This document shows positions 2,340 through 16,820 of a DNA stretch of 64,000 nucleotides, one piece after another. The notes beneath the pieces were generated by a model. It did not search any database. It saw nothing but the letters and a program-made list of their open reading frames with translations, and was not told where the DNA came from. A program made the position numbers and the translations under genes. Location of the stretch: positions 20,834-84,833 of the forward strand of contig DJEL01000015.1 in NCBI GenBank assembly GCA_002432425.1, written 5' to 3'. Origin of the DNA: Lachnospiraceae bacterium UBA5899. Lineage in GTDB: Bacteria; Bacillota; Clostridia; Lachnospirales; Lachnospiraceae. Every line of letters begins with the position of its first letter. The first letter of the stretch is position 1.

Positions 2340-3973
2340 CAATCCTCATCCTCATCTGTTTTATTGTATACGGTACGTTTTCTTGCCATTTCATCGCTGG
2401 CAAGGTATTCGTCGTAAGTGGTAATCTTGTCAATCAGGCTGCCGTCCGGAAGTATTTCCATAATACGGTTGGCAGTGGTCTGCACAAATTGGTGGTCATG
2501 GCAGGCGAAAAGTTCTACGCCGCCGAACTTGATTAAACCGTTGTTTAAGGCGGTAATGGACTCCATGTCCAGGTGGTTGGTGGGCTCATCCAAAATCAGG
2601 CAGTTGGCGCCGCTTATCATCATCTTGGATAAGAGACATCTTACTTTTTCACCACCGGAAAGGATGCGGACTTTCTTCACACCGTCTTCGCCGGCAAACA
2701 ACATACGTCCTAAGAAGCCGCGGACATAAGTTACATCCTTGACGGGAGAGTAGCCGGTCAGCCAGTCGGCAATGGTCAGGTCGCAGTCAAATTCCTTGGT
2801 GTTGTCCTTGGGGAAGTACGCCTGGGAAGTGGTAATACCCCATTTGTAGCTGCCTTCGTCCGGCTCTAATTCACCGACTAAAATCTGGAACAGAGTGGTC
2901 TTTGCCAGTTCGTTGCCGCCGACAAAAGCAATTTTATCATCGTGTCCGACAATAAAGGAAATGTCGTTTAAGACCTTTACGCCGTTTACCGTCTTGGAAA
3001 GGTGCTCCACGCTTAAGACCTCGTTGCCGATTTCTCTGTCGGGACGGAAATCAATGTAAGGGTACTTACGGCTGGAAGGACGGATTTCGTCCAGTTCGAT
3101 TTTTTCAAGAGCACGTTTTCTGGCGGTAGCCTGTTTGGATTTGGAAGCGTTCGCGGAGAAACGGGAGATGAATTCCTGTAATTCCTTAATCTTTTCTTCT
3201 TTCTTCTTGTTGGCTTCCTTCATCTGCTTGATAAGGAGCTGGCTTGACTCGAACCAGAAATCGTAGTTGCCGGCATAGAGCTGGATTTTGCCGTAGTCGA
3301 TGTCCGCAATCTGGGTGCAGACTTTATTTAAGAAGTAACGGTCATGGGATACCACGATAACGGTGTTCTCAAAGTCGATTAAGAAGTCTTCGAGCCACTG
3401 GATAGCGTCTAAGTCCAGGTGGTTGGTCGGTTCGTCTAAAAGCAGGATGTCGGGGTTGCCGAACAGGGCCTTTGCCAGAAGAACCTTTACCTTTTCGTTA
3501 CCGTTTAAGTCCTTCATAACGGAGTAGTGCAGGGAGGTGTCGATGCCGAGGCCGTTTAACAGGGAGGCTGCATTGGACTCTGCTTCCCAGCCGTCCATTT
3601 CCGCAAATTCCGCTTCCAGTTCGCTGGCGCGGATACCGTCTTCATCGGTAAAATCCTCTTTGGCATAGATGGCATCCTTTTCCTTCATAATCTGGTAGAG
3701 ACGCTCATTTCCCATAATGACAAGGTCCAGTACGGTGTAGTCATCATATTTGAAATGGTCCTGCTCTAAGACGGAGAGACGCTGGCCGGGGGTGATGAAA
3801 ATTTCACCGTTTGTGGTGTCCAGTTCTCCTGACAAAATCTTTAGGAAGGTAGATTTGCCGGCACCGTTGGCACCGATTAAGCCGTAGCAGTTTCCTTCGG
3901 TAAACTTGATGTTGACGTCTTCAAATAACGCCTTTTTTCCTACACGGTAGGTGACATTGTTAGCACTAATCAT
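2339..3973 (-). CDS. ABC-F family ATPase (two NBDs, no TMD; translation-factor type)
   Basis: Two Walker A sites (GANGAGKST; GGNELAKTT, degenerate) and two LSGGEK signatures with a K/E-rich linker (KKKEEKIKELQEFISRF). GAGGA lies 8 nt upstream of the ATG. Confidence 0.85.
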   Translation of the reverse strand: MISANNVTYRVGKKALFEDVNIKFTEGNCYGLIGANGAGKSTFLKILSGELDTTNGEIFITPGQRLSVLEQDHFKYDDYTVLDLVIMGNERLYQIMKEKDAIYAKEDFTDEDGIRASELEAEFAEMDGWEAESNAASLLNGLGIDTSLHYSVMKDLNGNEKVKVLLAKALFGNPDILLLDEPTNHLDLDAIQWLEDFLIDFENTVIVVSHDRYFLNKVCTQIADIDYGKIQLYAGNYDFWFESSQLLIKQMKEANKKKEEKIKELQEFISRFSANASKSKQATARKRALEKIELDEIRPSSRKYPYIDFRPDREIGNEVLSVEHLSKTVNGVKVLNDISFIVGHDDKIAFVGGNELAKTTLFQILVGELEPDEGSYKWGITTSQAYFPKDNTKEFDCDLTIADWLTGYSPVKDVTYVRGFLGRMLFAGEDGVKKVRILSGGEKVRCLLSKMMISGANCLILDEPTNHLDMESITALNNGLIKFGGVELFACHDHQFVQTTANRIMEILPDGSLIDKITTYDEYLASDEMARKRTVYNKTDEDED

Positions 3974-8958: not shown

Positions 8959-11586
8959 ATGAAAAAATGGGTGTACTTATTTACCGAAGGTAACGCAAAC
9001 ATGCGTGAACTTCTCGGCGGTAAGGGTGCTAACCTGGCTGAAATGACCGGTCTTGGTCTTCCTGTTCCCCAGGGTTTCACTATTACCACAGAAGCTTGTA
9101 CTCAGTACTATGAGGACGGCAGAGAAATCAATGAAGAAATTCAGGCTCAGATCAATGAATACATTGTAAAGATGGAGGAAATTACCGGTAAGAAGTTCGG
9201 TGACAAGGAGAATCCCCTTCTTGTTTCTGTTCGTTCCGGTGCAAGAGCTTCCATGCCCGGTATGATGGATACCATCTTAAACCTTGGTTTAAATGAGACC
9301 GTTGTAAACGTAATCGCTGAGAAATCCGGCAATCCCCGTTGGGCTTGGGACTGCTACAGAAGATTTATCCAGATGTACTCTGACGTAGTTATGGAAGTTG
9401 GTAAGAAGTACTTCGAAGAACTCATCGACCAGATGAAGGCTAAGAAGGGCGTTACCTACGACGTAGAACTGACCGCAGAAGACTTAAAGGAACTTGCTTC
9501 CGAATTCAAGGCTGAATACAAAGAAAAAATCGGTGTAGACTTCCCCGACGATCCTAAGGAACAGTTAATGGGCGCTATCAAGGCTGTATTCCGTTCCTGG
9601 GACAACCCTCGTGCAAACGTATACCGTCGTGACAACGATATCCCTTATTCCTGGGGTACTGCTGTAAACGTACAGTCCATGGCTTTCGGTAACATGGGTG
9701 ATGACTGTGGTACCGGTGTTGCCTTCACAAGAGACCCGGCTACCGGCGAGAAGAAGCTGATGGGTGAATTCCTTGTAAACGCACAGGGCGAAGACGTTGT
9801 TGCCGGTGTTCGTACACCTATGCCTATCGCAGAGATGGCTGATAAATTCCCTGAAGCATTCGAACAGTTCAAGAAAGTTTGTGAAACCCTTGAAAACCAC
9901 TACAGAGATATGCAGGATATGGAGTTTACTGTTGAAAACAAGAAGCTTTACATGCTGCAGACCAGAAACGGTAAGAGAACAGCTCAGGCTGCATTAAAGA
10001 TTGCATGTGACTTAGTAGACGAAGGCATGAGAACCGAAAAAGAAGCAGTAGCTATGATCGATCCTCGTAACTTAGATACTCTGTTACATCCTCAGTTCGA
10101 TGCTAAGGCTCTTAAGGCTGCAACTCCTATGGGCAAAGGTCTTGGTGCATCTCCGGGTGCTGCCTGCGGTAAAATCGTATTTACAGCAGAAGATGCAGAA
10201 GAATGGGCAGCTAAGGGTGAAAAGGTTGTTCTGGTTCGTCTGGAAACCTCTCCCGAAGACATCACAGGTATGAAGGTATCCCAGGGTATCTTAACCGTTC
10301 GTGGTGGTATGACATCCCATGCAGCAGTAGTTGCCCGTGGTATGGGTACCTGCTGTGTATCCGGCTGCGGCGACATCGCAATGGATGAAGCAAACAAGAA
10401 ATTTACTCTTGCCGGCAAGGAATTCCATGAAGGAGACTACATCTCCATCGACGGTTCCACCGGTAACATTTATGACGGCCAGATTGCAACTGTAGATGCA
10501 ACCATCGCCGGTGAATTCGGCAGAATCATGGCTTGGGCAGATAAGTACAGAAAGCTGAAAGTTCGTACAAACGCAGATACTCCGACCGATGCAAAGAAGG
10601 CTCGTGAGCTTGGTGCAGAAGGTATTGGTCTTTGCCGTACAGAGCATATGTTCTTCGAAGAAGACAGAATTGCAGCATTCCGTGAAATGATCTGCTCCGA
10701 TACAGTAGAAGAAAGAGAAGCAGCTCTGGATAAGATTCTTCCTTATCAGCAGGGTGACTTCGAAAAATTATACGAAGCTCTGGAAGGATGTCCTGTTACC
10801 ATCCGTTTCCTGGATCCGCCTCTTCACGAATTCGTTCCTACCGAAGAAGCAGACATCGAGAAGCTTGCTAAGGCTCAGGGCAAATCCGTTGAGACTATCA
10901 AGAATATCATCGCTTCCTTACATGAATTCAACCCTATGATGGGTCACAGAGGATGCCGTCTTGCAGTTACCTATCCTGAAATTGCAAAGATGCAGACCAA
11001 GGCTGTTATCTGTGCAGCTATCAATGTAAAGAAGGCACATCCCGATTGGAATGTAGAGCCTGAAATCATGATTCCTCTGGTATGTGAAGTGAAGGAACTT
11101 AAGTACGTTAAGAAGGTAGTTGTAGAAACCGCTGACGCTGAAATCGCAGCAGCAGGCATCGACCTCAAGTACGAAGTAGGTACCATGATCGAAATCCCGA
11201 GAGCAGCTCTTACCGCTGATGAAATCGCTAAGGAAGCTGATTTCTTCTGCTTCGGTACCAACGACTTAACCCAGATGACATTCGGCTTCTCCCGTGATGA
11301 TGCCGGTAAGTTCTTAAATGCTTACTATGATGCAAAGATTTTCGAGAACGATCCGTTTGCTAAGCTTGACCAAACCGGCGTTGGCAAGCTGATGGATATG
11401 GCTATCAAACTTGGTAAGCCTGTAAATCCTAAGCTTCATGTTGGTATCTGTGGTGAGCACGGCGGAGATCCTTCTTCCGTTGAATTCTGCCACAAGATTG
11501 GCTTAGACTATGTATCCTGCTCACCTTTCCGTGTTCCTATTGCACGTCTGGCAGCAGCTCAGGCAGCTATCGCTGACGAGAAATAA
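8959..11586 (+). CDS. ppdK: pyruvate, phosphate dikinase
   Basis: 875 aa. N-terminal LLGGKGANLAEM, phosphohistidine region GGMTSHAAVVARG, and a C-terminal PEP-utilising TIM domain (GLCRTEHMF, GTNDLTQ). Strong codon bias and a good RBS. Confidence 0.95.
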   Translation: MKKWVYLFTEGNANMRELLGGKGANLAEMTGLGLPVPQGFTITTEACTQYYEDGREINEEIQAQINEYIVKMEEITGKKFGDKENPLLVSVRSGARASMPGMMDTILNLGLNETVVNVIAEKSGNPRWAWDCYRRFIQMYSDVVMEVGKKYFEELIDQMKAKKGVTYDVELTAEDLKELASEFKAEYKEKIGVDFPDDPKEQLMGAIKAVFRSWDNPRANVYRRDNDIPYSWGTAVNVQSMAFGNMGDDCGTGVAFTRDPATGEKKLMGEFLVNAQGEDVVAGVRTPMPIAEMADKFPEAFEQFKKVCETLENHYRDMQDMEFTVENKKLYMLQTRNGKRTAQAALKIACDLVDEGMRTEKEAVAMIDPRNLDTLLHPQFDAKALKAATPMGKGLGASPGAACGKIVFTAEDAEEWAAKGEKVVLVRLETSPEDITGMKVSQGILTVRGGMTSHAAVVARGMGTCCVSGCGDIAMDEANKKFTLAGKEFHEGDYISIDGSTGNIYDGQIATVDATIAGEFGRIMAWADKYRKLKVRTNADTPTDAKKARELGAEGIGLCRTEHMFFEEDRIAAFREMICSDTVEEREAALDKILPYQQGDFEKLYEALEGCPVTIRFLDPPLHEFVPTEEADIEKLAKAQGKSVETIKNIIASLHEFNPMMGHRGCRLAVTYPEIAKMQTKAVICAAINVKKAHPDWNVEPEIMIPLVCEVKELKYVKKVVVETADAEIAAAGIDLKYEVGTMIEIPRAALTADEIAKEADFFCFGTNDLTQMTFGFSRDDAGKFLNAYYDAKIFENDPFAKLDQTGVGKLMDMAIKLGKPVNPKLHVGICGEHGGDPSSVEFCHKIGLDYVSCSPFRVPIARLAAAQAAIADEK

Positions 11587-11631
11587 TACAAGGTCTGTAA
11601 CGGACATTTGATTTATTGCATAAATACAGAA

Positions 11632-11671
11632 ATCCCCCATACTTCGTGATGAAGTATGGGGGATTTTTTTG
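11632..11671 (+). terminator. intrinsic terminator of ppdK
   Basis: ATCCCCCATACTTC / GAAGTATGGGGGAT stem with a short loop, followed by TTTTTTT. Confidence 0.85.
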
Positions 11672-11701
11672 AAATGAAAAGTGAATTTTCAAAAATAATT
11701 C

Positions 11702-11730
11702 TTGACAATGAAAAAATGCAGCACTATAAT
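11702..11730 (+). promoter_or_regulatory. consensus sigma-A promoter of the sulfur operon leader
   Basis: Perfect TTGACA (11702-11707), 17-nt spacer, perfect TATAAT (11725-11730). Confidence 0.6.
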
Positions 11731-11783
11731 GCACATAAATCAGATAGGAATTATAAGAATAAAAAGAGAAGGAGGGAACGGCT

Positions 11784-11927
11784 ATGGGATTTCAGAAAAT
11801 GAAAAAAGAAAATAACAGAATTGCAGCCAGAGAAATGAACCGTTTCTTCGGCTTCCTTGTTTTACCCGAAACAGCATGTTGTCTATGTTGTTGTTACGAC
11901 ACAGGCGGCAATTTTTTCTGTAAATAA
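11784..11927 (+). CDS. 47-codon poly-cysteine leader peptide candidate (not in the supplied ORF track)
   Basis: AGGAGG lies 7-8 nt upstream of ATG 11784. Translation: MGFQKMKKENNRIAAREMNRFFGFLVLPETACCLCCCYDTGGNFFCK. Five TGT codons fall within six codons (11877-11894), and TAA is at 11925-11927. Confidence 0.55.
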   Translation: MGFQKMKKENNRIAAREMNRFFGFLVLPETACCLCCCYDTGGNFFCK

Positions 11928-11956
11928 ACAGATTGATTAGTGTATATAGAAACGGA

Positions 11957-12022
11957 GACTCCGCCTGTTTTATCCATATTTCTGAACGATGAGATATTGG
12001 AAAACGGGTGGAGTCTTTTTGC
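11957..12022 (+). terminator. attenuator-type intrinsic terminator between the leader ORF and the methyltransferase gene
   Basis: GACTCCGCCTGTTTT (11957-11971) pairs with AAAACGGGTGGAGTC (12001-12015): 15 bp including 2 G-U. The loop partly self-pairs, and TTTTTGCGTTT follows. Confidence 0.6.
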
Positions 12023-12049
12023 GTTTCTGTAAAAGGTGAGGGAAAAACA

Positions 12050-12967
12050 ATGGTTGAAAGCAGAGAAAGCATTACGGCAAAGTTATGTTCTTTTGCCAGG
12101 GCTTATCATTCTAATTTTGAAAAAGAGAAAATTTTTGATGACTATCTTGCATTTGACTTCATGGGAAAAGAGGAATACGAGGAGATGGGGCAGCTCATCC
12201 AGAATGATTTTAATGTATCCGCCCTGGACCCGCAAAGCGATTTTGACGGCTCTTTCGTATACCCGTGGCTAAACCGGTTCATTTCGCCCATTCCGCTATC
12301 GCGCATCGCTTTTGCAGAGAAGGAGCTGCAGCGGTTTGTAAAGGAAAAGGGAAAATGCCAGTATGTAATCTGCGGAGCGGGTATGGATACCTTTGCATTC
12401 CGAAATGAAAATCCGGATATTCGTATCTTTGAACTGGACCACCCCGATACGCAGCAGTATAAACTGGAGCGGGTAAAGAAGTTGGAGTGGACGATACCCG
12501 AAAATGTACGGTATGTGCCCATTGATTTTTCCAAGGATGACATGAACCGGGTATTGCAGGAATCGGGAATTGACGAAAATATGCCGACCTTTGTTTCCAT
12601 TCTCGGGGTAACGTATTATCTGACATTGCCGGTTTTGGAACAGACATTAAAGAAGGTGGGAGGTATATCGGAAAAGGAAAGCCGTGTGGTATTTGATTTT
12701 CCCGATGAAACAACCTTTGACCCTCATGGAATCGAAAGGGTTTACGGACTGACACACATAACGGAAAAGTTAGGGGAACCGATGCTGCATGGCTTCCGCC
12801 TGCCGGAAATTTATCTGGCACTTTGGGAAAATGGTTTTCAGGTGGAGAAATACGAATCACCGGAAATGATACAAAAAAAATTTTTCGGAGAAAGAAAAGA
12901 CAGACAAAAGGCTTTTGAAAATATCCATTTTATTTTAGCAAAGAAAACAGAAAGGTATGGTGAGTAA
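12050..12967 (+). CDS. class I SAM-dependent methyltransferase (LCM/O-methyltransferase-like)
   Basis: AAAGGTGAGGG RBS before ATG 12050; the 12008 start lies inside the terminator. Motif VICGAGMDTF is a SAM-binding glycine loop. The gene occupies the ubiG position of ubiG-mccB-mccA type operons. Confidence 0.8.
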   Translation: MVESRESITAKLCSFARAYHSNFEKEKIFDDYLAFDFMGKEEYEEMGQLIQNDFNVSALDPQSDFDGSFVYPWLNRFISPIPLSRIAFAEKELQRFVKEKGKCQYVICGAGMDTFAFRNENPDIRIFELDHPDTQQYKLERVKKLEWTIPENVRYVPIDFSKDDMNRVLQESGIDENMPTFVSILGVTYYLTLPVLEQTLKKVGGISEKESRVVFDFPDETTFDPHGIERVYGLTHITEKLGEPMLHGFRLPEIYLALWENGFQVEKYESPEMIQKKFFGERKDRQKAFENIHFILAKKTERYGE

Positions 12968-12968
12968 C

Positions 12969-14138
12969 ATGAAAGAGAAAGAGTACAGCAGAATGGAAAC
13001 GGCAATTATTCACGGAGGTATTTACGGGGACAGTCAGACGGGAGCCGTCAATGTTCCGATTTATCAGACATCCACGTATGAACAGAAAGCACTGGGAGAA
13101 AACGCCGGCTGGGAGTATTCCCGCACCGGAAATCCTACAAGAGCGGCGCTGGAAAGCCTGATAGCCGAACTGGAGAAAGGAAAGGCAGGCTTCGCCTTCG
13201 GCTCCGGCATGGCAGCCATTACAGCAGTGCTCAGCCTGTTTCATTCCGGGGACAAAATTCTCATATCCAGCAATGTATATGGGGGAACCTTCCGCGTCTT
13301 AGATAAAATATTTAAGAACTTTGAAATCAGCTATTCCATAGAAGACACCACGGACCTTGACACTCTCGACAGCAGGATTACACCGGAAGTAAAAGCCATT
13401 CTGATAGAAAGCCCTGCCAATCCGCTTCTAACCGTGACGGATATTGCGGGAGTGGCTGCCATAGCAAAAAAGCACGGTATCCTTTCCGTTGTGGACAACA
13501 CCTTTATGACGCCTTATTTGCAGCGCCCGATTGAACTGGGAGCAGATATCGTGATTCACAGTGCCACCAAATATTTAGGCGGACACAGCGACGTCGTGGC
13601 AGGACTTGTTGCGGTCAACAGTGATGCCCTTGCGGAGCGTCTGGCGTTTATACAGAATGCCACCGGAGGCGTACTGGGACCGTTTGATTCCTTTCTGCTG
13701 ATACGGGGCATCAAGACACTGGGGGTACGGCTTGACCGGCATGTGGAAAATGCAGAAAAAGCAGCAGCGCATCTGAAAGCCCATAAAGCGGTCTGGAAGG
13801 TGTATTATCCGGGACTGCCGGACGCGCAGGGATATGAAATCAATAAAAAGCAGGCAAAAAACGGCGGCGCTATGATTTCCTTTGAACTTTATGAAAATTA
13901 CAACATCCGCAAGTTCTTTTCCTCACTGAAGATTATTGCCCTTGCGGAAAGTCTTGGCGGAGTGGAGAGCCTTGTATGCCATCCGGCAAGCATGACCCAT
14001 GCTTCCATTCCGTATGAGGTGAGACAGAAAGTGGGCATTACGGACGGACTCATCCGCCTGTCTATAGGGATTGAAAACATTCAGGACCTTTTAGAAGATT
14101 TGGACCGTGCAATCGCAGAAAGTGAGGAAAAAGCATGA
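12969..14138 (+). CDS. mccB: PLP-dependent cystathionine gamma-lyase / homocysteine gamma-lyase family (Cys/Met metabolism)
   Basis: TGAVNVPIYQTSTY N-terminus and the PLP-lysine region HSATKYLGGHSD. ATG 12969 is 1 nt after the upstream stop; 12957 is an alternative start. Confidence 0.85.
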   Translation: MKEKEYSRMETAIIHGGIYGDSQTGAVNVPIYQTSTYEQKALGENAGWEYSRTGNPTRAALESLIAELEKGKAGFAFGSGMAAITAVLSLFHSGDKILISSNVYGGTFRVLDKIFKNFEISYSIEDTTDLDTLDSRITPEVKAILIESPANPLLTVTDIAGVAAIAKKHGILSVVDNTFMTPYLQRPIELGADIVIHSATKYLGGHSDVVAGLVAVNSDALAERLAFIQNATGGVLGPFDSFLLIRGIKTLGVRLDRHVENAEKAAAHLKAHKAVWKVYYPGLPDAQGYEINKKQAKNGGAMISFELYENYNIRKFFSSLKIIALAESLGGVESLVCHPASMTHASIPYEVRQKVGITDGLIRLSIGIENIQDLLEDLDRAIAESEEKA

Positions 14139-15046
14139 GCTATTATGAATCGATGCAGGAGTTAATCGGGAATACGCCGCTGGTAAAATTAATTTATACG
14201 GGAAACAGGGAAGGGGTACAGCTGTTTGCCAAGCTGGAACTGTTCAACCCCTCCGGCAGTGTAAAGGATCGTACCGGAAAATACATGCTTGCGGATGCGG
14301 AAAAAAGAGGGAAACTTCTAAAGGGCGGAACCATTGTGGAAGCAACTGCCGGGAATACCGGGCTGGGAATTGCATTTGCGGCATTAAACAAAGGATACCG
14401 TATTATCTTTGTGGTGCCGACGAAATTTTCAGAGGAAAAGCAGACCCTGCTTCGGGCGCTCGGTGCAGAAATTGTGAATACCCCAAGGGAAGAAGGAATG
14501 CTTGGCGCGGCCCGCAAGGCAGAAGAATTAAGAAGCGTTATTCCGGGGGCGGTTTCCTTAGAGCAGTTTAAAAATCAGGCAAATCCGCTGGCACATTACG
14601 AAACAACGGGACCGGAAATCTACCGGGACCTGGAAGGAAAGATTGATTATCTGGTTGCCGGTGCGGGGAGCGGGGGAACATACACCGGCATTGTGCGTTA
14701 CTTAAAGGAACAAAATCCGAATATCAAAGGAATTCTGGCAGACCCGGTGGGCTCCACCATGGGCGGCGGAGAACACGGAGATTATGACATTGAGGGGATA
14801 GGCAACGATTTTATTGCGGAAACTATGGATATGTCACTGGTGGACAAAGTCATTAAGATTGATGACAACGATGCGTTTACCGGTGCCAGGGAACTGGCGG
14901 CAAAAGAGGGGATTTTTGCCGGTTCTTCTTCCGGAGCGGCATTTTCCGCAGCCAAGAAGCTGATTGCGGAAGGAGCGCAGGGAAACATCGTGATTGTTCT
15001 GCCGGACAGAGGGGACAGATACTTCAGTAAAAAGCTGTATGGATGA
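14135..15046 (+). CDS. mccA: cysteine synthase / O-acetylserine-dependent cystathionine beta-synthase family
   Basis: IGNTPLVKL, PLP-lysine motif NPSGSVKDR, TAGNTG and GAGSGGT loops. ATGA overlap with mccB. Confidence 0.85.
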   Translation: MSYYESMQELIGNTPLVKLIYTGNREGVQLFAKLELFNPSGSVKDRTGKYMLADAEKRGKLLKGGTIVEATAGNTGLGIAFAALNKGYRIIFVVPTKFSEEKQTLLRALGAEIVNTPREEGMLGAARKAEELRSVIPGAVSLEQFKNQANPLAHYETTGPEIYRDLEGKIDYLVAGAGSGGTYTGIVRYLKEQNPNIKGILADPVGSTMGGGEHGDYDIEGIGNDFIAETMDMSLVDKVIKIDDNDAFTGARELAAKEGIFAGSSSGAAFSAAKKLIAEGAQGNIVIVLPDRGDRYFSKKLYG

Positions 15047-15159
15047 AAACGGCAAAAACATATTGCCCTTATAGGCATTCTGTTTTATAATAAGAGAAAC
15101 AGAACATATGAAAATGAATGACGAAGGCAAACAGACGAAGAAAGAGAGGACGGATGGAT

Positions 15160-15351
15160 ATGGATATTGCTGGACTTTCTATGGATATGTCAATGATGAA
15201 TGTGCAGTCGAAGGTGAGTGTAGCCATGCTGGATAAATCTCTTGATATGGAACGGTCACTGGGAGACGGTCTGGTGCAGATGATAGATGCAGCGGCTATG
15301 GAGCGAAGCGCCAACCCGGCAGTGGGAGGAAGCGTAGACATTCGGTTATAA
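15160..15351 (+). CDS. YjfB-family small protein (putative motility-associated)
   Basis: MDIAGLSMDMSMMNVQSKVSVAMLDKSLD...GGSVDIRL resembles the YjfB family. AGAGGA lies 9 nt before ATG 15160; earlier in-frame starts have poor spacing. Confidence 0.7.
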   Translation: MDIAGLSMDMSMMNVQSKVSVAMLDKSLDMERSLGDGLVQMIDAAAMERSANPAVGGSVDIRL

Positions 15352-15357
15352 AGAAAA

Positions 15358-15387
15358 AGGAAAGGCGATGCCTTTCCTCTTTTTTTG
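15358..15387 (+). terminator. intrinsic terminator
   Basis: AGGAAAGGC-GAT-GCCTTTCCT hairpin followed by CTTTTTTT. Confidence 0.8.
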
Positions 15388-15389
15388 AA

Positions 15390-15431
15390 CAGGATATACT
15401 TTGCGTATTGCAGGATATACTCTGCGTGTTA
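15390..15431 (+). repeat. two tandem 21-nt direct repeats upstream of ktrB
   Basis: CAGGATATACTTTGCGTATTG and CAGGATATACTCTGCGTGTTA are adjacent, with a 21-nt period and three mismatches. Confidence 0.6.
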
Positions 15432-15464
15432 TAAAAAGGAAAGCGGCATGCGGACAGCATGTGA

Positions 15465-16820
15465 ATGGATGCAAACATCATGAACGAAGAAATTATAAAA
15501 CGGAAAAAGCGCCTTTCTTCTTTTCAGACTATCATATTGGGCTTTGCAGGCGTTATTTTATTGGGAGCATTGCTTCTGATGCTGCCCATTGCCACAAAGG
15601 AAAGGGTGGTGACGCCTTTCCATGAAACCCTGTTTACCGCCACCTCTGCGACCTGCGTGACGGGACTGGTGGTACAGGATACCGGCAGCTATTGGTCGGT
15701 GTTCGGACAGGCAATCCTTCTTTTGCTGATACAGATTGGCGGACTCGGTGTGGTGACGGTGGCGGTTGCGCTTACCATGCTTTCGGGCAAAAAGATTTCG
15801 TTAATGCAGCGAAGCACCATGCAGGAAGCCATATCCGCACCGCAGGTGGGCGGAATTGTCAGACTGACCGGGTTTATTTTGAAAGGAACGTTTCTCATAG
15901 AGCTCGTGGGCGCCCTGTGCCTTATGCCGGTGTTTGTAAAGGACTTCGGAATAAAGGGTATCTGGTATGCCTTCTTCCACTCCATATCGGCTTTTTGCAA
16001 CGGCGGATTTGATTTGCTGGGTACGGCGGATAACCGGTTTGTATCCCTGACGGGATATGCGGGCAATGTGCCGGTGAATGTGATTATTATGTTGCTCATT
16101 TTACTGGGCGGTCTGGGATTTTTAACCTGGGAAGATATCTGCACGAAGAAGTTCCACTTCAAAAAATACCGGCTGCAGAGTAAAATTGTACTGACGGCAT
16201 CGGTATTTTTACTGGTGCTGCCGGCGGTGTTTTTCTTTTTCTGCGAATTCAAGGATATGCCGCTTAAGGAGAGGATTTTGTACTCCCTTTTCCAGACGGT
16301 AACGCCGAGGACGGCGGGCTTTAACACGGCAGACCTGGCAGGTATGCAGGGGGCATCCAAGGCAGTAATGATAGTTCTTATGCTAATCGGCGGAGCACCC
16401 GGTTCTACTGCGGGCGGTATGAAGATTACGACACTGGCGGTTCTTGTCGCCGATATGCGTTCGGTTTTCCGACAGAAAGAAGATATGCAGTTCTTTGGCA
16501 GAAGAATAGAAGAAGGTGCCGTTAAGACGGCGGCTGCTGTTCTGACTCTGTACCTTACACTGTTTGTAGGTGGAGCCATAGCCATCAGTGTGGCGGAGGG
16601 GCTGCCTCTGGGGGACTGCCTGTTTGAAACGTGTTCTGCGGTAGCAACGGTGGGTGTGACGCTGGGCATCACTCCGGGGCTTGGCATTTTCTCCCAGATT
16701 ATTCTGACTACTTTAATGTTTATGGGCAGAGTGGGATGCCTGACCCTGATATATGCGGCAATATCCGGCGGAAACAAAAACTTTTCAAGGCTTCCGCAGG
16801 AAAAAGTAATGGTAGGATAA
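15465..16820 (+). CDS. ktrB: TrkH/KtrB-family potassium uptake membrane subunit
   Basis: 451-aa polytopic protein with repeated selectivity-filter-like segments (CNGGFD, RTAGFN, TAGGMK, TVGVT). An alternative start lies at 15480. Confidence 0.9.
   Translation: MDANIMNEEIIKRKKRLSSFQTIILGFAGVILLGALLLMLPIATKERVVTPFHETLFTATSATCVTGLVVQDTGSYWSVFGQAILLLLIQIGGLGVVTVAVALTMLSGKKISLMQRSTMQEAISAPQVGGIVRLTGFILKGTFLIELVGALCLMPVFVKDFGIKGIWYAFFHSISAFCNGGFDLLGTADNRFVSLTGYAGNVPVNVIIMLLILLGGLGFLTWEDICTKKFHFKKYRLQSKIVLTASVFLLVLPAVFFFFCEFKDMPLKERILYSLFQTVTPRTAGFNTADLAGMQGASKAVMIVLMLIGGAPGSTAGGMKITTLAVLVADMRSVFRQKEDMQFFGRRIEEGAVKTAAAVLTLYLTLFVGGAIAISVAEGLPLGDCLFETCSAVATVGVTLGITPGLGIFSQIILTTLMFMGRVGCLTLIYAAISGGNKNFSRLPQEKVMVG

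Follow-up and report, generated by a model that had tools for sequence, protein, structure and literature searches.

Amino-acid sensing in Firmicutes is usually ascribed to T-boxes and riboswitches, and leader-peptide attenuators are rare in Clostridia (Bacillota). The ubiG-mccBA operon of Clostridium acetobutylicum and C. perfringens is controlled by a Cys-specific T-box, to which C. acetobutylicum adds an S-box-driven antisense RNA (PMC2566862, PMC2940859). Cysteine codons in short upstream ORFs have been described in other taxa: the uORFC-8-2 motif upstream of cysS in Rhodobacterales is a predicted Cys-specific ribosome-mediated attenuator (PMC8632094), mycobacteria have leaderless polycysteine short ORFs (bioRxiv 10.1101/834739), and Cys leader peptides are known from Actinobacteria (PMC1262725). 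Histidine leader peptides upstream of hisS/hisZ paralogs in Bacilli provide a case of a leader-peptide attenuator replacing a T-box in Firmicutes (PMC2965389).

The literature on Cys leader peptides of Clostridia and Firmicutes yielded only actinobacterial, Rhodobacterales and T-box cases. An earlier note on the DNA analyzed here had stated that no Cys leader-peptide attenuator was known in Clostridia, and this held against Rfam 15, NCBIfam, database names and the literature searched; such an element has apparently not been described before. The candidate lies in a stretch of 64,000 nucleotides from Lachnospiraceae bacterium UBA5899 (the window), upstream of genes for a methyltransferase, an MccB-like and an MccA-like enzyme. 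Judged by its sequence, it is very probably a trp-type ribosome-mediated transcription attenuator, predicted to read the supply of charged tRNA-Cys and to gate an operon making cysteine from methionine/homocysteine.

Leader and operon in the window

The features of the leader and of the operon are listed in Table 1. The promoter is the sole match to the consensus at 12 of 12 positions in 11000–16000, 53 nt separate the end of its -10 box from the leader ATG, and where relatives lack an upstream cysK, they carry a TTGACA promoter in the corresponding position. Five of six consecutive codons of the leader ORF (codon positions 32–37) encode cysteine, with TGT at 11877, 11880, 11886, 11889 and 11892. 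The leader peptide has no Pfam or NCBIfam family match. An antisense ORF (11782–12072, 96 aa) was rejected as a gene, since only 19 of 69 relatives keep an antisense frame open through most of the leader.

Table 1. Features of the candidate attenuator and the operon downstream, in window coordinates.
Feature	Position	Strand	Basis or remark
Sigma-A type promoter, TTGACA (11702–11707), 17-nt spacer, TATAAT (11725–11730)	11702..11730	+	12/12 consensus match
Possible operator remnant CACATAAATCAGATAGG, directly 3' of the -10 box	11732..11748	.	Palindrome of relatives; weak
Shine-Dalgarno sequence AGGAGG of the leader ORF	11770..11775	+	8 nt 5' of ATG 11784; read from sequence
Leader-peptide ORF, 47 codons, encoding MGFQKMKKENNRIAAREMNRFFGFLVLPETACCLCCCYDTGGNFFCK, C-terminal end ...ACCLCCCYDTGGNFFCK	11784..11927	+	Homologous ORFs in relatives
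P1 hairpin inside the leader ORF (11826–11835 with 11843–11852)	11826..11852	+	Covariation
Cys codon run TGT TGT CTA TGT TGT TGT	11877..11894	+	11877–11891 is segment 1
Segment 1, within the Cys codons; pairs with segment 2	11877..11891	+	Folding and comparison
Segment 2, core ACAGGCGG (11901–11908); alternative partners segment 1 or segment 3	11896..11910	+	Folding and covariation
Segment 3, terminator 5' arm, containing CCGCCTGT (RNA CCGCCUGU) at 11961–11968	11957..11975	+	Folding and covariation
Segment 4, terminator 3' arm	11999..12015	+	Folding and covariation
U-run of the attenuator terminator (TTTTT)	12016..12020	+	Read from sequence
SAM-dependent methyltransferase, LCM / TIGR00027, first regulated gene	12050..12967	+	PF04072 7.6e-39, TIGR00027 3.5e-38
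MccB-like cystathionine gamma-lyase / homocysteine desulfhydrase	12957..14138	+	Cys_Met_Meta_PP, PF01053 1.2e-150
MccA-like PLP enzyme, CysK / cystathionine beta-synthase family (PALP)	14135..15046	+	PF00291 1.5e-71
Operon-end terminator, 9-pair stem then T-run	15358..15378	+	Sequence reading

The leader as a whole folds with z = -6.7 relative to shuffles. Its three helices are mutually exclusive: segment 2 is common to 1:2 and 2:3, and segment 3 is common to 2:3 and 3:4. The energies in the window are -15.5 kcal/mol for the 1:2 hairpin (11877–11891 with 11896–11910), -15.3 kcal/mol for the 2:3 duplex, which is the antiterminator, and -31.7 kcal/mol for the terminator hairpin 3:4 (11957–12015; about 26 pairs). 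The earlier note had reported the promoter with its spacer, the AGGAGG sequence, the 47-codon ORF, the five TGT codons in six positions and the complementarity of the two octamers, and all of these were found where it placed them, the TGT codons by direct reading. Its terminator was correct in position and in being followed by TTTTT, but the stem is longer than the 15 bp given.

The start codon of the methyltransferase gene is at 12050, not 12051. For the MccB-like enzyme the best NCBIfam match is NF005810 with 565 bits, under the curated cutoff of 594, and the MccA-like enzyme scores 337 bits with TIGR01136 (cutoff 344) and 331 bits with TIGR01137; its role as MccA is suggested by the operon context. 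By analogy with YrrT/UbiG in known Met-to-Cys operons, the LCM-family methyltransferase would make S-adenosylhomocysteine.

With respect to known RNA regulators, no T-box (RF00230) and no SAM (S-box) riboswitch was found at E <= 10 on either strand of 11000–16000, in agreement with the earlier reading that neither motif is visible, and no T-box reached the gathering score in 12 related loci. The Rfam scans as a whole (the operon at E <= 10, the 12 related loci at gathering score) returned only chance microRNA-like matches on hairpins and no leader family. A clean palindrome, CCTAY-N7-RTAGG, occurs in relatives either at the site matching the possible operator remnant or upstream of cysK; the window copy has two mismatches and is not significant alone (48 matches found vs 58 expected). 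At most, the sequence 3' of the -10 box bears a weak resemblance to the CymR box of B. subtilis.

Conservation of the leader frame and of the RNA helices

The element is present, ahead of the same type of operon, at about 73 of the 77 related loci with enough upstream DNA, and in about 70 of 80 genome loci the methyltransferase gene is closely preceded by a homologous short ORF that contains a Cys run. Carriers include Ruminococcus, Oscillospiraceae, Lachnospiraceae, Christensenellales, Anaerotignum, Ruminiclostridium sufflavum, Eubacterium oxidoreducens and Bianquea. A pattern scan of metagenomes for other regulated operons gave 34 matches: 30 contigs carrying the element ahead of the same methyltransferase–mccB–mccA type of operon, and four chance matches in coding DNA; no wider regulon emerged from them. 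Recurrence with covariation in about 100 other loci shows that the window element is more than chance.

The genomic surroundings vary. In most relatives the element is directly 3' of cysK, and in metagenome variants the leader is found directly ahead of mccB (L105) or of a 183-codon ORF (L108).

A covariance model of the element, built without the window sequence, scores the window element at 65 bits (E 5e-15), the next best match in the 64 kb having 20 bits, and finds 37 further loci outside its seed; scores of the element range from 65 to 106 bits. Neither this model nor a regular-expression search found other copies in the 64-kb window or ahead of other genes.

The leader ORFs of the relatives (69+ loci) have 26–53 codons, with 3–6 Cys in seven residues, and a GAGG-type Shine-Dalgarno sequence and an ATG are present in 69 relatives. 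Among Shine-Dalgarno plus ATG candidates at most 200 nt upstream of the Cys run, 84 are in frame with it and 0 and 4 are out of frame. The N-terminal part takes 11 different lengths, from 14 to 34 codons, and is in frame every time; over these 14–34 codons the leader frame is open in all 69 loci, the other two frames in 2 and 22. UGY occurs 334 times in the leader frame and 53 and 15 times in the others.

These counts bear on the possibility that the conserved hairpins form a protein- or ligand-binding RNA switch, the short ORF being incidental and UGY kept only for pairing with ACAGGCGG. Such a switch could explain every conserved block at the RNA level. It would also fit the balanced energies of the ribosome-free 1:2 / 2:3 alternation and the observation that conservation 3' of the Cys run is that of an RNA and not of a peptide, ACAGGCGG being in another frame in one relative (L013) and 3' of the stop codon in two (L010 and L012). 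An incidental ORF, however, is hard to reconcile with translation signals placed strictly in frame with the UGY run, with a frame open throughout and with UGY concentrated in it; moreover, no Rfam family matches, and only simple helices were seen, with no conserved junction resembling a ligand pocket. We consider an RNA switch of this kind very unlikely.

The helices of the predicted attenuator are conserved as well. Helix 2:3 (11901–11908 with 11961–11968) is 95.5% paired across 67 distinct relatives, with changes on both sides in five of its eight pairs; none of 500 shuffles was as high, and slid registers gave 33–48%. Related sequences can exceed shuffles without any structure, and the slid-register controls are the fairer test. 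Three-way changes were found in four relatives: L019 (GCGGACGG / CCGUCCGU), L004 (ACAGGUGG / CCACCUG), L007 and L058. Helix 3:4 is 88% paired over its 10 basal pairs, with 55 double-change cells. As for helix 1:2, 63 of 66 loci have at least five of the eight segment 2 core bases paired with upstream sequence when the local fold of minimum energy is taken (mean -14.5 kcal/mol, mean z -2.5), and in a fixed register 82% of positions are paired, compared with 30–48% when slid; its covariation is modest, since coding constrains the Cys codons too. The earlier note had proposed an alignment of relatives as a check, looking for a short ORF with a Cys run and for compensatory changes in the two helices. 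The outcome was favorable on each count: relatives retain the ORF, Cys run, Shine-Dalgarno sequence and ATG in frame, the terminator is conserved together with its U-run, and compensatory changes are seen in both the terminator and the antiterminator.

At least five T among the six nucleotides directly 3' of segment 4 are found in 61 of 66 relatives. This conserved U-run argues against a translational attenuator of the type demonstrated for polycysteine short ORFs in mycobacteria (bioRxiv 10.1101/834739), which the Cys run and the gene context resemble. In the window the Shine-Dalgarno sequence of the methyltransferase gene (about 12034–12042) is outside the hairpin, which ends 18 nt upstream and does not sequester it; hairpins with a U-run likewise lie at the ends of neighboring genes; and the leader ORF, having a Shine-Dalgarno sequence and an ATG of its own, is not leaderless. 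A translational mode of control is thus very unlikely.

The additional hairpin P1, defined by eye and then tested separately for covariation, is 81% paired, with 89 double-change cells compared with 38.8 +/- 4.6 in shuffles and with 30–53% pairing in slid controls; it is missing in four relatives with ORFs of 26–27 codons. No consensus structure emerged when RNAalifold was applied to the 5' half of the leader, probably owing to gap-rich columns. The conservation of P1 as RNA accounts for an apparent 'AE...F.G' motif in the peptide.

LCM/TIGR00027 methyltransferases are also found in natural-product clusters. It is nevertheless highly improbable that the ORF, Cys-rich and recurring on many contigs as a 'hypothetical protein' of public genomes though it is, encodes a functional small protein or a RiPP precursor with the methyltransferase and PLP enzymes as tailoring enzymes: a conserved terminator intervenes between ORF and enzymes, the C-terminal residues show no conservation at the peptide level (those 3' of the Cys run shift frame in L013 and are lost to a stop in L010 and L012), the 'AE..F.G' motif is a covarying and dispensable RNA hairpin, the peptide is without a Pfam or NCBIfam match, the neighbors (cysK, gamma-lyase, CBS-like enzyme) belong to core, primary sulfur metabolism, and no transporter, protease or cyclase is associated.

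Predicted mechanism of attenuation

The window thus has the hallmarks of a trp-type attenuator: an ORF led by a Shine-Dalgarno sequence, a run of cognate codons, an intrinsic terminator, mutually exclusive helices and suitable codon placement. The enzymes of the operon (gamma-lyase, CBS/CysK-like) match the Cys codon signal, so that the regulated genes fit the input of the attenuator. Transcription would begin at the promoter (11702–11730), and a ribosome would load at AGGAGG/ATG (11770/11784) and translate the 47-codon leader. When cysteine is plentiful, the ribosome would pass the Cys codons and segment 2 and then depart; segment 2 would be covered or refolded onto segment 1, helix 3:4 would form, and RNA polymerase would halt 5' of the methyltransferase gene. 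Under a shortage of Cys-tRNA, it would stall at the first Cys codons and mask segment 1, leaving segment 2, 24 nt on, free; helix 2:3 would form prior to the synthesis of segment 4 and keep the G+C-rich base of the terminator open, and the methyltransferase, MccB-like and MccA-like genes would be transcribed. The parts of this scheme that we infer are leader translation, the ribosome stall, the kinetic order in which the helices fold and the cysteine response.

The placement of the codons fits, in geometry and thermodynamics only, a stalled ribosome that masks segment 1 and leaves segment 2 free. The first Cys codon precedes segment 2 by 24 nt in the window, which is also the median of the relatives, and the last one lies 3–12 nt 5' of segment 2 among relatives (median 6). 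Folded without a ribosome, the window leader forms 1:2; once a ribosome footprint masks the first Cys codon, segment 3 becomes the partner of segment 2 in 55 of 66 loci, among them the window. A footprint on the last Cys codon partly covers segment 2 and gives 2:3 in only 13 of 66 loci, so that only stalls at early codons would work. For 27 of 66 relatives, a transcript truncated 5' of segment 4 and free of ribosomes already favors 2:3 over 1:2 at equilibrium, and default termination would therefore rely on 1:2 forming first. The antiterminator has only about half the stability of the terminator, which makes read-through depend wholly on folding order.

These comparisons, together with the pairing of the antiterminator, support the Cys-sensing ribosome-mediated switch between terminator and antiterminator that the earlier note had proposed, and the masked folding of the window agrees with its suggestion that a stall on the Cys codons frees 11901–11908 for the terminator arm. 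The complementary suggestion, that ACAGGCGG is covered once a ribosome has reached the stop codon, had to be abandoned: measured from segment 2, the stop codon of relatives lies anywhere between -14 and +34 nt, and at the 16 nt of the window a terminating ribosome would be just past segment 2. As the position of the stop codon is not conserved and the 1:2 hairpin is, segment 2 would be silenced by pairing with the Cys codons. This hairpin had been missed, and its inclusion leads to the full trp-type scheme of 1:2, 2:3 and 3:4.

Bacillota are currently assumed to lack transcription-translation coupling, and their RNA polymerase has been classed as one running ahead of the ribosomes (PMC13323073), which makes ribosome-timed attenuation harder unless a pause exists. 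One could guess that the conserved P1 pauses RNA polymerase until the ribosome arrives; a NusG-type pause motif (TTNTTT) near P1 is absent in the window and was seen by eye in some relatives. A broader and tentative idea, which we regard as somewhat doubtful, is that P1 is a ribosome-released pause and that, at the same time, the element splits one repressor-controlled operon in two. If so, the pause would restore synchrony of transcription and translation in a phylum thought to have runaway transcription and would make ribosome-timed attenuation possible even about 930 nt into the transcript, directly 3' of cysK; cysK would be expressed whenever the promoter fires, and the methionine-consuming part only when tRNA-Cys charging falls.

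Significance and comparison with described systems

A large group of rumen and gut Clostridia is predicted to use a textbook leader-peptide attenuator where C. acetobutylicum and C. perfringens use a Cys T-box, which would be a clean case of sensor exchange with input and output unchanged. The prediction assigns a function to a recurrent 'hypothetical protein' of 26–53 residues and provides annotators with a covariance model. It also implies that the conversion of methionine to cysteine in fiber-degrading anaerobes may be switched on by tRNA-Cys charging, with a bearing on the sulfur amino-acid economy of the rumen. Ribosome-timed termination needs the lead ribosome near RNA polymerase, so that the element could be used to probe the synchrony of transcription and translation in Clostridia.

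With the trp, his, leu, thr, pheA and ilv attenuators of Proteobacteria the window element shares a short ORF led by a Shine-Dalgarno sequence, a cognate codon run within segment 1, mutually exclusive 1:2 / 2:3 / 3:4 helices and an intrinsic terminator 5' of the first structural gene. It differs from them in that it is unrelated in sequence, is a predicted cysteine sensor and carries one more covarying hairpin, P1, 5' of its regulatory codons, and elements of its type mostly follow cysK and precede the next gene instead of lying at the transcript's 5' end.

The uORFC-8-2 motif likewise has Cys codons in the first stem and then a terminator with a U-run, but it has two tandem Cys codons near position 14–15, compared with 3–6 here, and is confined to alphaproteobacteria, where it controls the tRNA synthetase gene cysS (PMC8632094), whereas the present element precedes a Cys-synthesis operon of Clostridia. 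A comparison by the published feature list found no sign of homology between the two (PMC8632094). In mycobacteria and other Actinobacteria, too, genes of cysteine metabolism are controlled via ribosome stalling at a run of Cys codons within a short upstream ORF, as predicted here, and one Cys leader lies ahead of a cbs gene in Bifidobacterium longum; those ORFs, however, are leaderless, have no recognizable intrinsic terminator and expose the ribosome-binding site that serves the next gene, whereas a Shine-Dalgarno sequence, a terminator and an antiterminator are present in the window. The histidine leaders of Bacilli differ in amino acid, genes and class, and their sequence is unrelated.

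The ubiG-mccBA operon is similar in pathway, in gene order (methyltransferase, gamma-lyase, beta-synthase-like enzyme) and, as predicted for the window, in tRNA-Cys charging as the input and in terminator read-through as the output. The match to ubiG-mccB-mccA pointed out earlier therefore stands as an analogy of pathway and gene order, but not for the methyltransferase, which is of the UbiG type there and of the LCM family in the window. The sensor differs as well: in ubiG-mccBA it is an RNA that binds uncharged tRNA, and in the window it is predicted to be the ribosome.

Distribution and reading frame of the leader

The earlier note had proposed, from sequence alone, a Cys-sensing ribosome-mediated attenuator upstream of a methyltransferase-mccB-mccA operon, and all features it listed are indeed present in the window (see table). 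The whole leader folds much better than shuffled sequences (z = -6.7). A scan of both strands against Rfam 15 yielded no match to T-box, S-box or leader families even at E <= 10, in agreement with the absence of T-box and S-box motifs claimed before. An antisense ORF of 96 codons (11782-12072, minus strand) extends across the entire leader and the terminator; most likely it is spurious, since just 19 of 69 relatives have an antisense frame that stays open over the greater part of the leader.

Features of the leader and the operon in the window
Feature	Position	Strand	Remark
Promoter TTGACA-17 nt-TATAAT	11702-11730	+	sole perfect 12/12 match within 11000-16000
Shine-Dalgarno AGGAGG	11770-11775	+	8 nt before ATG 11784
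Leader ORF encoding MGFQKMKKENNRIAAREMNRFFGFLVLPETACCLCCCYDTGGNFFCK	11784-11927	+	five TGT codons among six positions
P1 hairpin GCCGAA...UUCGGC inside leader ORF	11826-11835 with 11843-11852		columns 108-134 of A3 (alignment of the leader 5' half); covariation
Helix 1:2	11877-11891 with 11896-11910		-15.5 kcal/mol
Segment 2 core ACAGGCGG	11901-11908	+	exact complement of CCGCCTGT, 11961-11968
Terminator hairpin, then TTTTT	5' arm from 11957, 3' arm to 12015	+	-31.7 kcal/mol
SAM-dependent methyltransferase, LCM/TIGR00027	12050-12967		family match
Cys/Met-metabolism PLP enzyme, nearest cystathionine gamma-lyase/homocysteine desulfhydrase (MccB-like)	12957-14138		family match
PALP enzyme, CysK/cystathionine-beta-synthase-like (MccA-like)	14135-15046		family match
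Operon-closing terminator	15358-15378		

An alignment of methyltransferase homologues was used to retrieve 80 loci (L001-L080; 57-69% protein identity) from species-representative genomes, spanning Ruminococcus, Oscillospiraceae, Acutalibacteraceae, Lachnospiraceae and Christensenellales and including the cultured strains Eubacterium oxidoreducens, Bianquea renquensis, Ruminiclostridium sufflavum and Anaerotignum propionicum. In about 70 of the 80 loci, a short ORF contains a Cys run ending 72-160 nt before the methyltransferase ATG; in two loci the distance is larger, 208 and 255 nt. On inspection, the apparent exceptions L004, L039 and L075 also proved to have the element, and L056 a degenerate version with two Cys. 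No leader was found in L031 and L079, where the methyltransferase gene directly follows cysK, and no Cys leader in L034 and L068, which have just a promoter and a palindrome. Metagenome contigs, scanned with a DNA pattern, yielded 34 matches, 30 of them being the same element before the same operon type.

Several metagenome loci deviate from the common arrangement. In L105 (8480-10061, oriented) mccB directly follows the leader, the methyltransferase gene being absent, and in others (for example, L091 and L107) 0.5-2.4 kb of extra genes separate methyltransferase and mccB. In L108 (495-1046, oriented) a typical leader and terminator, scoring 70 bits with the covariance model described below, precede a 183-codon ORF with no match to methyltransferase, MccA, MccB or CysK, the sole sign that another gene might be regulated in this way. 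L109 (14388-14647 of the 110-kb contig Ga0129312_1000064) contains a leader nearly identical to that of the window; its peptide differs at residue 2 only (G to E) and its terminator by a few changes in the upper stem, and the contig probably stems from an organism closely related to the source.

In 69 loci a GAGG-type Shine-Dalgarno sequence precedes an ATG. When such pairs were counted in any frame within 200 nt upstream of the Cys run, 84 shared its frame, compared with 0 and 4 for the alternatives. Ahead of the run lie 14-34 codons (11 different values), in frame every time, and all 69 of 69 loci keep this frame open, whereas the two alternative frames are open in 2 and 22. The predicted peptides have 26-53 residues, with 3-6 Cys per seven-residue window. 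These frame statistics indicate that the leader reading frame is real and make an RNA switch with an incidental ORF unlikely.

The stretch following the Cys run, in turn, is conserved as RNA and not as peptide. What looks like a peptide motif, D-T-G-G, reflects the nucleotide string GAC ACA GGC GG, which is read in another frame in L013 (..CCCLHRRQ) and preceded by a stop codon in L010 and L012. Likewise, the mid-peptide motif 'AE....F.G' is false, a by-product of the RNA hairpin P1 located 24 nt before the first Cys codon. P1 is 81% paired (30-53% in slid registers), with 89 double-change cells versus 38.8 +/- 4.6 in shuffles; it is missing from four relatives with ORFs of 26-27 codons (L051, L057, L060 and L077) and hence is not essential. 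That the ORF encodes a RiPP or a functional small protein is unlikely, given that its C-terminal residues are not kept as peptide, that a terminator separates it from the enzymes, and that its neighbours are primary sulfur-metabolism genes.

Alternative helices and their spacing

Four segments of the leader RNA, namely the Cys codons (1), the stretch following them (2) and the two terminator arms (3 and 4), form three mutually exclusive helices, whose pairing was calculated from an alignment of 68 sequences. The antiterminator 2:3, proposed in the earlier note and retained here, is 95.5% paired, with changes on both sides in five of eight pairs; none of 500 shuffles scored as high, and slid registers gave 33-48%. 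The base of the terminator 3:4 is 88% paired, with 55 double-change cells, and a U-run follows directly in 61 of 66 loci. This conserved U-run and the position of the methyltransferase Shine-Dalgarno sequence outside the hairpin render a translational attenuator of the mycobacterial kind unlikely.

The third helix, 1:2, in which the Cys codons pair with segment 2, had been overlooked. In the local minimum-energy fold at least five of the eight core bases of segment 2 pair upstream in 63 of 66 loci (mean -14.5 kcal/mol), and a single fixed register is 82% paired versus 30-48% when slid. A Leu or Met codon (CUG, AUG) occurs inside the Cys run because it belongs to the 1:2 stem. Changes are linked across segments: in L019 the Cys run contains CCG, and segments 2, 3 and 4 read GCGGACGG, CCGUCCGU and CAGGACGG, respectively; L004 carries ACAGGUGG, CCACCUG and CAGGUGG; and in L007 and L058 the outer pair is altered on both sides.

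Segment 2 begins 3-12 nt (median 6) after the last Cys codon and 15-30 nt (median 24) from the first one, and the stop codon lies between -14 and +34 nt from segment 2, showing that the spacing of the Cys run and segment 2 is under constraint, unlike the position of the stop codon. We folded transcripts cut just before segment 4 under a ribosome footprint. With the footprint at the first Cys codon, segment 2 paired with segment 3 in 55 of 66 loci; at the last Cys codon it did so in just 13; in the ribosome-free fold its partner was segment 1 in 37 loci and segment 3 in 27. The window leader folds into 1:2 when free, into 2:3 with a ribosome stalled at the first Cys codon, and again into 1:2 when the ribosome is placed at the stop codon. 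We assign the silencing of segment 2 to the 1:2 hairpin and not, as assumed in the earlier note, to a ribosome that has reached the stop codon.

From 62 relatives, with the window excluded, we built a covariance model (129 positions, 22 pairs), which detected the window element (11868-12021) with 65 bits and E 5e-15, the next best match in the 64 kb being a plain terminator with 20 bits. It recovered seven genome and 30 metagenome loci outside the seed (28-106 bits) and gave no match in loci judged element-free. In three Anaerotignum loci (L050, L053 and L054), not detected by the model at E <= 0.001, the Cys-run ORF and the terminator are kept and the antiterminator pairing is different, GGAGGG with CUCCYC, reaching upstream of the terminator arm; these loci are a diverged sub-type.

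Genomic context

In 53 of 68 relatives the leader ATG is found 12-34 nt past the stop codon of cysK, whose product ends in ...GERYLSTPMF (for example, in L017 cysK occupies 2837-3760 and the leader ATG is at 3778). There the attenuator is an internal intercistronic switch in cysK-leader-methyltransferase-mccB-mccA. In the window (11586-11784) cysK is absent, and a pyruvate phosphate dikinase gene with its own terminator is the upstream neighbour instead. Between this gene and the leader promoter lies a perfect 16-bp hairpin (11630-11666) flanked by an A-run and a T-run, which looks like a terminator on both strands, shielding the attenuated operon from upstream transcription.

A 17-bp palindrome, CCTAY-N7-RTAGG, precedes cysK in 46 of 53 loci. 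Those relatives that, like the window, lack cysK have a TTGACA promoter, in many cases with the palindrome directly after the -10 box; it was seen in the promoter regions of L056, L068, L034, L008, L009, L013, L027, L036 and L076. The window copy (CACATAAATCAGATAGG, 11732-11748) is degenerate, with two mismatches, and not significant alone. A cysteine-responsive repressor probably uses the palindrome as its operator; the motif seems to resemble the B. subtilis CymR box. This arrangement in relatives suggests two control layers, a DNA-binding factor at the promoter and an attenuator gating the Met-to-Cys genes only.

Proposed mechanism and known systems

The conserved frame, the Cys run, helices 2:3 and 3:4 and the covariance model support the core of the original reading, and the element is very probably a trp-type, ribosome-mediated attenuator sensing tRNA-Cys charging. 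Its parts, frame, conservation, covariation and spacing are demonstrated here, and from them we infer leader translation, stalling, the order of folding and the response to cysteine. With plentiful cysteine, a ribosome would clear the Cys codons and traverse segment 2, after which 1:2 would re-form, so that 3:4 would terminate transcription. With scarce Cys-tRNA, it would stall at the early Cys codons and occupy segment 1; 2:3 would be established before segment 4 is synthesized, the G+C-rich base beside the U-run would stay open, and the Met-to-Cys genes would be transcribed.

The antiterminator has about half the stability of the terminator, so that a kinetic switch is required, as in trp. 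Bacillota are classed with bacteria whose RNA polymerase outruns ribosomes (PMC13323073, PMC8586808); a polymerase pause would reconcile attenuation with such runaway transcription. P1 may be the pause hairpin, comparable to the trp 1:2 pause hairpin and to the pausing-dependent leader control of vmlR in B. subtilis (PMC9226507).

The claim that no such attenuator had been described in Clostridia held: we found no description in the literature, most subscription journals being outside the coverage, or in Rfam 15; the peptide matched no NCBIfam or Pfam family, and in database names it is 'hypothetical protein' throughout. Terminator-free Cys leader peptides were predicted in Actinobacteria (PMC1262725) and, in mycobacteria, shown to act on translation (bioRxiv 10.1101/834739); in Rhodobacterales a two-Cys uORF with a terminator was predicted upstream of cysS (PMC8632094), and Bacilli have regular His leader peptides (PMC2965389). 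In C. acetobutylicum and C. perfringens a Cys-specific T-box controls the analogous ubiG-mccBA operons, with an additional S-box-driven antisense RNA in C. acetobutylicum (PMC2566862, PMC2940859), whereas the operon studied here very probably has a leader-peptide attenuator. The comparisons point to a well-defined, widespread Clostridial family of Cys-sensing leader-peptide attenuators. The mechanism itself is textbook. Through its phylum, the exchange with the T-box, its location behind cysK and the additional hairpin, the element offers a useful case for testing how transcription and translation are coupled in Clostridia.
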